A stretch of DNA of 64,000 bases from Curvularia clavata (taxonomy: Eukaryota). Positions 36,821 to 40,790 of this stretch are shown in pieces (the stretch's first letter is position 1; every line of letters starts with the position of its first letter). Where the stretch lies: NCBI GenBank assembly GCA_023920165.1, contig CP089279.1, positions 1,612,001-1,676,000 on the forward strand. The letters are read 5' to 3'. Below the pieces are notes generated by a model. The model was given only the letters and a program-made list of their open reading frames with translations, was not told the origin of the DNA and made no database searches. Position numbers and translations under genes: made by a program.

Positions 36821-38235
36821 TCACCCAAACCCCGAACACACCCTCGCCTTGAGCAGCACGTTGCTCATCTCAAGATGCTCGCCCCACTCATCACCATGCT
36901 TGACAAGGCCGGGAAATGCGCAAAAGAGGAATGTACGATCCGTCTCCATGGCAGAATCGTCATCCGTGGTAGAGTCGACATCGTTGATGGCTTCCATTGT
37001 GCGGTCGTCTAGATGCATTGGTGCGCCTGGGCTGCGAAAGAAAAGCAGCTCGTATCGCGATTTCTGGAGAGCAAGTGTTTGTTGTAGTTCTACAGTACTC
37101 TTGAGAATCCCATGTAAAGCCGTTTGTGCGCTGGAGGTAACCGTAGTGGACGTTAGGGTGAAGAGCAGATGGCAGATGTCTCCTAGGATACGGTGTAGCA
37201 ATCGCTCTCTTTCTTTTGCAATATCCTTTTGTACACTGCTGCTCTCGAGCACTTGTATTGTAGCACGTTTCCAATCGCAATAAGCAGCACCGCCATCTTG
37301 TACCTGGCTGGCAAAGGTCTGGATTGCTGCTAGTGATGCTGGTAGCCCAAAGACCAGAGGAATTTGGAAGATGTCCATGAGCGAATTTGAGACAACAGCT
37401 TGATAAAGCGCAAACTTGTCGGCACCCTGAATACCGTTCCTATACTGAGGATACAGTGCGTGGATTGTATCTTCAGTTTCTTTGGGTAGATTGTCAAAAT
37501 TAAGCTTTGTCCGCCTCAAGTTGGATACTGTCCATTCTCGGACGCGGTTTGCAAGCTCTGAAAAGGATGACATAAGGTCACCATCTGTCACTTGGGATTG
37601 CACGCGTGTGAGAGATGATATGCTCGACTTCAGAGAAATGAGTTGTTGAAGCCTTTCCTGTGATTCTTTTTCGGCCACATGTAACCGCTGTCTGAGGTCG
37701 CTCACTTCCTCTGGTGCCTTTGGCCGCTCGGTGCCTTGTCGAGTTCGGTCAGGAAACAGCTGCTCCTCCATCTGAGCCACCCGGCAGCGCAGTTCGTGGT
37801 TTTGGCGCACAAGCTCTTCGCTCTCGCGTTGCACGGCATCGTTGATTGTACTTTCCCAAGGGTTGCGTATGTCGTCTGTGGTGGGTGCGTTTTCCGCATT
37901 CGACCGTATTTTGGCAAGCTCTGGGCTCAATTCTAACATGGCATCCTCGACATCGCTCACAGGCTGATTAGAATCAGGTGTAATGCCATTCCGGTGCTTC
38001 AGCATGTCACTGACAGGATTTCTGCGGCGGCGTGCTTCCTCCTTGGTGGCATTGGGTGTAGCGCTTGTAGCCTTTGGAGGGGTGACGTTGGAATTGGATG
38101 ATTTGGGCGACTTGGAAGTCAGTCGCCCGGTGCGCTTCACTGCGGCCCGGTGAGGAGAGCCTAATGGCGTCAGAACACAGACCGCAAGCGCTGGTGGTGG
38201 GGCTGACGCTTACCAGAGCTCTTTTGTTCGGTCAT
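36821..38235 (-). CDS. Hypothetical coiled-coil protein (~453 aa) with putative GrpE/MIEAP-like C-terminal beta domain, 2 exons (intron 38161-38213)
   Basis: ATG 38235 (MTEQKSSG); GTAAGC...CTGAC...TAG intron joins in frame to ORF 36821..38140. Heptad-rich segment, helical middle, C-terminal ...TMEAIND...FLFCAFPGLVKHG...NVLLKARV. Confidence 0.8.
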
Positions 38236-38712
38236 GGTGGCAGATGGAGTGTTCCGAGTTCAGGGCCGCATCGGAATCACCATGACCTTACACGACAAAC
38301 CTTGTATCGAACAGCCCCGTCACGCTCTTGGAACAACCTGGCTCTTGGATGCGAGTAAGGCGGACGCTATTTAGAGGACTAGCCATTAGGACTAACAGTC
38401 ACGACGCAATCCTGCAGCCTGGGACGATCCGCCCGCTACAGTCGCCCCTGCAGCTGGCTGCAACCTTAGGCCTGAACATTTCACTGCCCTCTCCACCTTC
38501 ACGCTCACCAGCACCACCCAATGTCTTCCAGGGCAAATCTTTGGTGATGTCGGCGTCTCCCACACTCGCTGTCGCACCTCGATGAGATTCTCGCGTTTGC
38601 TCTCGAAGGATTGAGCCCCGCAGAGTGACCCCACGCGACGTCGACGCGACTCTTGCCACACCAACAGCATCGCCGCAGCCAGAGAGGCAGAAAGACCACT
38701 GGCAAGTAGAAA

Positions 38713-40790
38713 ATGGAGAGCCTATTTCCAAGGAGAGGGAGCAGCATACCCACTACCTTCAACCCGGGCTCCAATGGCAGTGTGGACGCGAGCAGCGTGC
38801 CATTGAGCACCACTACCGCCAAAGACAGGCTGGTTGTTGGGGTCGACTTCGGAACCACGTACAGCGGTGGGTAACGCCCATGAAAGCCATGGCAATCATT
38901 GCAACCATACCGGCCCAGTGCGAAGCGAAGCTGAACATCAACAGGCGTTGCTTTGGCTTATAGTGCGACACCTGAAGATATTGACGTTATCAAGACTTGG
39001 CCTGGCGGAAATGGTAATCTCTCTTGTATCCACACAGCGCACGTCTATTCAGTCTAACGCGCGTCTCTAGGTATCACTTCGGACAAAGTGCCTACTGAGA
39101 TTGGCTACAGCGAGCCTGCTTCTCTAAACGACCCGACTTCGTCGCTCAAGTCACCCGCCAAGCCTACACCAGCCGTAAAATGGGGCTTCCAATTCAAACC
39201 AGAGGAGACGCGTCTGCGATGTATCAAGCTTTTCCTTGACCGAAACCAGAAGCTCCCACCCTATGTGTCACCGCTCGAGACAGCTGCGCAATTGCGCAAG
39301 TATAACAAAACGGTCATGGAGGCAGCCTCAGACTATCTTTCGCAAATTTACAAGCACACAATGGAAACATTAACTAGAAGATATGGCGAGACATTCATTA
39401 GCTTGACTAAGATCGAGTTTGTCTTGACCGTACCTGCTGTGTGGTCAGACTCGGCCAAAGACGCGACCCTGAAGGCTGCTGAACAGGCTGGTATGGGCAA
39501 AAGGCACGAATTAAAACTCATATCCGAACCCGAAGCAGCGGCCGTATACACCCTGAAAGCCATACAGCCAAACCACCTCAAGGTTGGAGACAACTTTATC
39601 GTGTGTGATGCTGGGGGCGGCACTGTAGATTTAATTGCCTACAAGATTACCCAACTATTCCCTCTGCGCGTCGAAGAGTCAGCAGTCGGAACCGGCGGCC
39701 TCTGTGGCTCGAGCTTTATCAACTACCGCTTTGAGGACCATGTCAAGCAACGAATTGGAACAGAGCGATATACATGGATGCGTGAGAAAAAGGCAAAGAC
39801 CTGGAACATGGGTTTGAAGTACTTTGAGGAATTCGTCAAGCGCAACTTCAACGACGAGGAATACAATGAAGTCAACATCCCCTTTCCAGGTCTACCAGAC
39901 GATGAAGACGCAGGCCTAGATTCTGGCTTCCTCGTAATGAGCTCAGATCAGGTCAAGAGCTTGTTTGATCCGGTTGTAGAAGACGTTATACATCTGGTAG
40001 AGGGTCAGGTGGAGAGTATCAGAGCAAGGGGAGGTTTGGTATGCGGCATTATCCTGGTTGGGGGCTTCGGACAGAGTAATTATCTCTACAGTCGGATGAA
40101 GTCACACTTCAACTCTGCGCCACCGCCGCCATACACGGAGAGACCAACACACTTTGTTCCTATGGATACGCCACAATCTATTGAGATCTACCAGCCTATA
40201 CACGCCTGGACAGCTGTTGTGCGTGGTGCTGTGCTGAGGGGTCTGGAAGGCAACATGGTCATCAGCCGTCGAAGTCGTTGGCACTATGGCACAAGTTATG
40301 CGACCGTGTTCGATGAGAATAAACACCCAATCAGTGATCGCTATTGGAGCCCTCTCTGGGAGCGATGGATGGTATCCGACCGAATGCAATGGCACATTGC
40401 AAAGGTAATCACCCATTACCATCACGCTCAACAGAAACTAACCATGACAAATCACAGGGCGCCCAAGTCTCCGAATCTCGCCCTATATCATTCCACTACA
40501 CACGCAATTTCCGCCCAGGCCAATCTCTCATCGTAGAAGACGACCTCATCGCCTGTGACGAAGACGTTGCGCCCGATTCTCTCACAAAAGACCTCATCAA
40601 CGTGTGCACACTAACCACCGATCTGAATACCGTGCCCAAAAGCCTCTTCACGCGTCTCACAACCACAAAGGGCGTCGAGTTTGATAACCTAGACTTTACG
40701 CTCGACATGCGGTGTCAGAGTGCGGGACTGGTGTTTGAGCTCAAGGTCGACGGCGTTAGGTATGGCGCTGTTGAAGCGAAGTTCCATTGA
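38713..40790 (+). CDS. Atypical Hsp70 (HSPA12-like actin-fold ATPase), 4 exons (introns 38867-38944, 39014-39070, 40405-40457)
   Basis: VVGVDFGTTYSG (phosphate-1), DKVPT, LTVPAVWS, ISEPEAAA, VCDAGGGTVDL (phosphate-2), ILVGGFGQS (adenosine), AVVRGAVL. No canonical substrate-binding domain signature or EEVD. Confidence 0.92.

Follow-up and report, generated by a model that had tools for sequence, protein, structure and literature searches.

A conserved divergent pair of fungal genes encoding an HSPA12-type ATPase and a coiled-coil protein with a possibly GrpE-like C-terminus

A stretch of 64,000 nucleotides from Curvularia clavata (GenBank assembly GCA_023920165.1, contig CP089279.1, positions 1,612,001 to 1,676,000 of the forward strand; hereafter the window) was analyzed with regard to two divergent genes at 36821-40790. 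The gene on the plus strand is predicted to encode an atypical Hsp70 of the HSPA12 type, and the gene on the minus strand encodes a coiled-coil protein, hereafter the partner. The pair is a real, conserved two-gene module, which has probably been kept together across the Pezizomycotina for hundreds of millions of years. That the partner is a dedicated GrpE-like cofactor of the HSPA12-type ATPase, with both proteins acting as one functional module, is plausible, if unproven, and is given a little under an even chance. Full-text searches of the literature found no paper on this gene pair.

The divergent gene pair and its conservation in fungi

The ATG of the minus-strand gene was located at 38235-38233 and that of the plus-strand gene at 38713, leaving a gap of 477 nucleotides (nt; 38236-38712), in agreement with the distance of about 480 nt given in the initial annotation. 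Both products have 100% protein matches in C. clavata under the consecutive locus tags yc1106_08188 (minus gene) and yc1106_08189 (plus gene).

Linkage was assessed in 28 metagenome loci which encode relatives of the partner. A locus was considered informative if the sequence upstream of the partner gene extended for about 500 nt or more; in 11 of the 28 it fell short of 340 nt, and these were left out of the count. The Hsp70-like gene was found head-to-head with the partner gene in all 17 informative loci, which represent 14 distinct sequences at 97% nucleotide identity. Consecutive identifiers are carried by the two genes in Dothistroma septosporum (DOTSEDRAFT_68491/68492) and in four strains of Orbilia oligospora, and at least 13 genomes, from several classes, have both genes on one contig. 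The proposal of the initial annotation that the two genes form a conserved unit, to be checked by their adjacency in other fungi, is supported by these loci, in which the flanks are rearranged, and by the linkage in other classes of Pezizomycotina.

In the window, a short-chain dehydrogenase (SDR) gene is located 3' of the partner gene (34995-36202, minus strand). This gene was downstream of the partner in none of the 17 loci with at least 2.7 kb of sequence there. An SDR gene lies 3' of the Hsp70-like gene instead in the loci L014 (6035-7001), L015 (2673-3639) and L018 (5290-6393). Because the SDR gene is found on opposite sides of the pair, either the SDR gene or the pair must have moved, with the pair itself remaining intact.

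A homologue of the partner (P0276) and an Hsp70-like protein 75% identical to that of the window (P0209) are both filed under Quercus suber. These records most likely represent fungal sequence inside a plant assembly.

The plus gene encodes a predicted HSPA12-type ATPase

The plus gene comprises four exons. Exon 1 (38713-38866) encodes an N-terminal extension and the phosphate-1 loop DFGTTYSG, and is followed by exon 2 (38945-39013). Exon 3 (39071-40404) encodes the bulk of the ATPase domain (Pfam HSP70, E 9e-10) and exon 4 (40458-40790) a conserved C-terminal domain, including the stop codon at 40788-40790. The three introns occupy 38867-38944, 39014-39070 and 40405-40457. Together with the single intron of the partner gene described below, all four predicted introns were found joined, with GT..AG ends, in contigs of the public runs X1, X5, X9 and X16, which stem from four studies. 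The two joints flanking exon 2, of which 38866>38945 is the first, were present in four of the four runs, and the joint leading into exon 4 in three of four. That the runs are RNA is a guess of the tool; on this premise, transcription and splicing of both genes would follow the models. The spliced product is identical to the public 629-amino acid (aa) protein P0121.

The 629-aa product is an Hsp70-superfamily ATPase. The motifs DFGTTYSG, SEPEAAA, DAGGGTVD and LVGGFGQS are present and are invariant or nearly so across 49 orthologues, and the phosphate-1, phosphate-2, connect and adenosine motifs of the Hsp70/actin-fold core are intact. Nucleotide-binding domains of Hsp70 and DnaK in the PDB match the protein at E ~3e-7. 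The Pfam HSP70 match (42.5 bits, cut-off 20.6) is confined to profile positions 126-343 of 599, hence the Pfam scan gives no match to a canonical substrate-binding domain. The C-terminal domain, conserved and non-canonical, ends in ...AKFH, and an EEVD terminus is absent. The family PF27033, a model outside the Pfam copy scanned here, is annotated on this protein by the source database. Judged from its sequence, the plus gene encodes an atypical Hsp70 of the HSPA12 type, and the description as HSPA12-like in the initial annotation, with all ATPase motifs and neither a canonical substrate-binding signature nor EEVD, was accurate.

Orthologues with 72-89% identity over 444 residues were found in Dothideomycetes, lichen-forming lineages, Geoglossomycetes and Sordariomycetes; those of Orbilia are 71-75% identical. 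Public names among the orthologues include 'Heat shock protein 12A' and 'Heat shock 70 kDa protein 12B'. In Pseudomonadota, a profile of the plus-gene family matched none of 401 genomes at E ≤ 1e-20, and the protein itself none of 301 genomes at E ≤ 1e-12.

The minus gene encodes a coiled-coil protein outside the Pfam families

The partner gene has two exons on the minus strand. Exon 1 (38214-38235) encodes MTEQKSS and the first base of a Gly codon. The main exon (36821-38160) is an open frame which encodes residues 8-453 of the 453-aa protein and includes the stop codon at 36821-36823. Between them lies an intron of 53 nt (38161-38213), reading gtaagc...ctgac...ag, which is skipped in contig joints of three of the four runs (X1, X5, X9). 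In the public model P0001 (467 aa), about 15 residues are translated from part of this intron. The 453-aa form beginning MTEQKSSGSPHR was preferred, since it is supported both by the contig joints and by the N-termini of the orthologues, which start MTE(R/Q)KSS. The C-terminal text reported in the initial annotation was recovered exactly, the tail reading YELLFFRSPGAPMHLDDRTMEAIND ... RTFLFCAFPGLVKHGDEWGEHLEMSNVLLKARV.

Pfam scans assigned the partner to no family; in these and in an NCBIfam scan, coiled-coil and chance rows only were obtained. A word-based search yielded 147 homologues at E ≤ 1e-3, and an exhaustive profile search 555 cluster representatives at E ≤ 1e-3, 113 of them at E ≤ 1e-30. 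All named homologues are labelled 'hypothetical' and none is assigned to a Pfam family; those looked up belong to Dothideomycetes, Leotiomycetes, Sordariomycetes, lichen fungi and Orbilia.

The whole partner was modelled with AlphaFold2 at a pLDDT (predicted local distance difference test) of 73. Residues 1-100 are disordered in the model, and this N-terminus is basic and rich in Ser and Thr. It contains the basic motif PPKA...RRRRNP.(N/S)DML (38000-38080, minus strand), whose columns are nearly invariant in 30 homologues and which could be a nuclear-targeting or docking motif. Long helices follow at residues 101-134 and 149-184 (37607-37858, minus strand), where the Pfam scans give noise of the coiled-coil type; the coiled coil (residues 101-184) carries a nearly invariant block RLH..EKES..RLQQL..LKSSISSLTR. 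The subsequent helical bundle (residues 192-363; 37070-37585, minus strand) is mostly modelled at pLDDT 85-96. It is much bigger than the bundle of GrpE and has no clear match among solved structures. The C-terminal beta domain (main-exon residues 368-444; 36827-37057, minus strand) has six strands in the AlphaFold2 models and includes an acidic disordered loop; Y, M, F, C, P, K and G are its invariant residues. In this way, the model reproduced the layout read from the sequence by the initial annotation, namely a disordered N-terminus, a coiled coil, a helical block and a loop-bearing tail.

Some homologues are longer. In P0313 (Podospora fimiseda, 717 aa) and P0348 (Ophiocordyceps, 661 aa), an N-terminal AKAP7-type 2',5' RNA ligase-like (2H phosphoesterase) domain precedes the partner-like region (E 1e-18 and 8e-25), representing either a genuine fusion or gene models that were merged. 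In homologues from Orbilia oligospora (P0374 and relatives, about 1780 aa), the partner-like region is preceded by some 1250 N-terminal residues of low complexity. A search for longer or fused forms of 780-2225 aa with query region 150-445 gave none at E ≤ 1e-3, which is weak evidence; long forms are known from other searches (the 1781-aa protein of Orbilia and P0028 with 779 aa). A fusion of the Hsp70-like protein and the partner in Orbilia was considered and rejected: one cluster lists both, yet a BLAST comparison of the 1781-aa protein with the 600-aa ATPases revealed no similarity, and the two were therefore taken to be neighbours.

The initial annotation had also likened the C-terminus of the partner to that of MIEAP/SPATA18. 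This was not supported. The nearest named clusters in a protein language model were plant GIL1_IRKI_C (0.80-0.83) and animal MIEAP (0.78-0.82), both below the threshold of 0.9 for a lead. Neither MIEAP (PF16026) nor GIL1_IRKI_C (PF24994) was matched by Pfam in 81 proteins (E ≤ 0.01) or in 18 C-terminal fragments (E ≤ 10), and neither was among the matches listed for 30 partner members at E ≤ 5.

Similarity of the partner tail to GrpE

A C-terminal module of 141 residues, which comprises the beta domain and the two helices ahead of it (main-exon residues 305-445; 36824-37246, minus strand), was folded alone with AlphaFold2 (pLDDT 81). In a Foldseek search with this tail model, ranks 1-7 of 350,542 chains were all GrpE (E. 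coli, human and Thermus), with further GrpE chains at rank 11 (M. tuberculosis) and rank 23 (Geobacillus). For ranks 1-7, E-values were 0.057-0.72, the best probability was 0.35 and template modelling (TM) scores were 0.22-0.29, all below the confidence levels of the tools. GrpE was the best match among solved structures in two independent aligners.

For profile comparison, an alignment of the partner family (207 sequences, of which the hhalign filter retained 102) was compared with a GrpE profile of 31 sequences, comprising E. coli and 30 other Pseudomonadota only. The comparison of partner and GrpE scored 21.0-21.8 with P 0.012-0.016 (all comparisons: P 0.012-0.1, probability 0.6-3.7%, with 3.7% at P 0.012). 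Partner and GrpE align colinearly over GrpE columns 38-200, and the best 15 columns place FD..ME.I of the partner on FDPnlHQAv of GrpE. The score of 21.0 exceeded those of 100/100 column-shuffled decoys (mean 12.0, maximum 19.5) and of 100/100 block-shuffled decoys (mean 13.6, maximum 17.2); with the reversed profile, 14.3 was reached. The likeness to GrpE is weakly supported, in that three partly independent tests agree, each of them below significance.

Several observations weigh against a GrpE-like cofactor. Foldseek with the whole partner model against the PDB returned nothing at E ≤ 1e-3, and GrpE was not listed. Pfam GrpE (PF01025, curated cut-off 25.8 bits) was absent for 30 members at E ≤ 5 among the matches listed (25 of 74 families), and was found in none of 18 C-terminal fragments at E ≤ 10. 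Two of 81 distant members gave hits to it (E 0.0066 and 0.0077; 16.4-16.6 bits), both confined to the coiled coil. A sequence-profile search of the PDB with the partner gave coiled-coil matches only, at E ≥ 0.17. About 170 helical residues and the loop of the partner have no counterpart in GrpE. Concerning the gene pair, a single contig carries both genes in the metagenome-assembled genomes of Trizodia, Bogoriella, Piccolia and Sarcosagium, with tags that differ by 2, 4, 7 and 10, respectively, and in Cryomyces minteri the pair is split over two short contigs. Across the metagenome loci, identities are 30-52% for the partner and 45-100% for segments of the ATPase (mostly 63-92% in long ones); such a gap in rate is unusual for a tightly fitted interface.

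By its sequence, the partner falls outside the GrpE family as Pfam defines it. Of the GrpE-like tail proposed in the initial annotation, the top rank among solved structures and a profile alignment centred on the named motif speak in favor, and a Pfam match is missing; the structural check suggested for it likewise put GrpE at the head of the list for the tail, at E-values and TM scores below threshold, and did not list it for the whole model. Weighing both sides, we lean towards the tail being a GrpE-type module.

Proposed mechanism and its alternatives

Hsp70-type ATPases require exchange factors. In the favored explanation, the plus gene would provide an Hsp70-superfamily ATPase with intact catalytic motifs and the minus gene its dedicated cofactor. 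The partner would probably form a coiled-coil dimer via its long helices, as the model suggests. Its last 140 residues, two helices and a small beta domain of six strands, would constitute a GrpE-like module homologous to GrpE. The beta domain and the adjoining helices may dock on the nucleotide-binding cleft of the ATPase and control the exchange of ADP and ATP, and the N-terminus, basic and disordered, may together with the large bundle of helices serve in regulation or targeting.

A different role of the partner is rather unlikely, although it shares the linkage evidence in full. It assumes that the partner is dedicated to the ATPase as an adaptor, scaffold or client and is no exchange factor. 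The coiled coil and the basic N-terminus would then direct the ATPase to a target, for example a membrane, an organelle or a condensate, and the resemblance to GrpE would go no further than having two helices ahead of a small beta domain in common. Such a role would suit a protein far larger and more elaborate than GrpE, for which no GrpE test was significant, and the AKAP7-type domain in two Sordariomycete members is in line with it. The nearest language-model clusters, GIL1_IRKI_C and MIEAP, are leads only; they represent coiled-coil proteins with a C-terminal domain, and the missing Pfam matches to both count against an adaptor of their kind. A chance arrangement is also difficult to reconcile with GrpE topping two independent structure searches over all solved folds and with a profile alignment which is centred on the GrpE signature motif and beats 200/200 decoys.

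It is unlikely, to a greater degree, that the genes are held together only by a compact shared divergent promoter, the products being co-expressed and maybe active in one process without protein contact. The region between both ATGs (38236-38712, 477 nt) would comprise the divergent promoter and the 5' untranslated regions. It measured 509-666 nt in all but one of 16 related loci; the spacing of L018 is not comparable, as the match there is limited to partner residues 123-453. Leaving L018 aside, the spacing is short and constrained (477-666 nt) and contains conserved blocks, as expected for a shared promoter. The 10-mer GTCGCGTGGG (38630-38639, minus strand), some 75 nt ahead of the ATG of the Hsp70-like gene, occurs at matching positions in 8 of 14 intergenic sequences. 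None of the 17 intergenic regions contains a three-unit heat-shock element and 3 have two-unit sites, which gives no indication of classical heat-shock control. Contigs of the public runs fit a shared promoter too. The contig of X16 record 7, which includes all three splices of the Hsp70-like gene, begins at 38333, about 100 nt from the partner ATG; a partner contig of X5 extends to 38262; and a single contig of X1 covers both 5' ends, spanning the partner, the whole intergenic region and further sequence to 38867, at the end of Hsp70-like exon 1. The 5' regions of both genes seem to overlap or abut (38262-38867). The very different evolutionary rates of the two proteins likewise speak for this explanation. 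However, a promoter constraint alone is insufficient, because linkage persists at a distance of 2-10 tags where strict adjacency has been lost, and it would make a coincidence of the fact that the best structural match for the neighbour of an Hsp70-type ATPase is an Hsp70 exchange factor.

Inherited synteny without selection, with unrelated functions of both genes, is extremely improbable: most loci do belong to one order-level group (partner identity 36-52%), in which related genomes share gene order by descent, but the pair stayed intact in 17/17 loci with rearranged flanks while the other neighbour was retained in 0/17, and it is adjacent by identifiers in Orbilia and Dothistroma and on one contig in the genomes of several classes mentioned above.

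Should the partner be a GrpE-like cofactor, the general pairing of an Hsp70-type ATPase with a GrpE-type helper would be known already, and its cellular and family context would be new: a GrpE-type exchange factor outside organelles, acting on a non-canonical Hsp70. We know of no GrpE-type factor described in such a setting. Apart from this, the conserved neighbour of a fungal HSPA12 orthologue is a concrete candidate partner for HSPA12-type ATPases. A further-reaching proposal is very unlikely, according to which the partner family is a diverged cytosolic descendant of GrpE serving HSPA12-type ATPases and the fungal member of an old eukaryotic group with animal MIEAP/SPATA18 and plant GIL1/IRKI. 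If it were true, animal HSPA12 proteins would have MIEAP-like cofactors, and a branch of Hsp70 to which no function has been assigned would gain both a partner and a mechanism for its nucleotide cycle.

Other features of the window

A cysteine-rich protein of 218 aa is encoded at 41239-41895 on the minus strand. Two stretches match the chitin-recognition (hevein-type) domain Chitin_bind_1 (E 2e-15), and the protein is probably secreted. At 8001-12000 and 28001-30000, the window shows raised G+C (0.57-0.60) and strong GC skew of opposite sign (+0.17 and -0.23).

Comparison with known systems

HSPA12-type ATPases are distributed from fungi to humans. The plus-gene product resembles vertebrate HSPA12A and HSPA12B in that its orthologues bear these names, its HSP70 match is limited to the ATPase core and EEVD is lacking. 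The name 'actin-like ATPase domain-containing / Hsp70 family protein-like', in use for fungal proteins, is found on its public records as well. In contrast to the vertebrate proteins, the fungal orthologue group is exceptionally conserved, with the identity of 72-89% reached across classes, and the fungal gene has a fixed divergent neighbour. A 2026 review (PMC13580251) states that the function of HspA12 is unknown, and the part consulted describes no HSPA12 cofactor.

MIEAP/SPATA18 (PF16026) and GIL1/IRKI (PF24994) are, like the partner, coiled-coil proteins with a C-terminal domain. They differ from it by the absence of Pfam matches and by sub-threshold scores, in a comparison based on Pfam scans and language-model features only.

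The closest known systems are GrpE with DnaK in bacteria and Mge1/GrpEL1 with mitochondrial Hsp70 (PF01025; PDB 1DKG, 4ANI, 3A6M and 9BLS). GrpE displays the same order of elements as is predicted for the partner, i.e., a long helix, helices and a small beta domain of six strands. Bacterial grpE is often linked to dnaK, and the partner gene is similarly linked to a gene for an Hsp70-superfamily ATPase. Compared to GrpE, the partner adds about 170 helical residues, an acidic loop within the beta domain and a disordered N-terminus of 100 residues. Whereas GrpE is paired with a DnaK-type Hsp70, the neighbour of the partner is an ATPase of the predicted HSPA12 type without a canonical substrate-binding domain.

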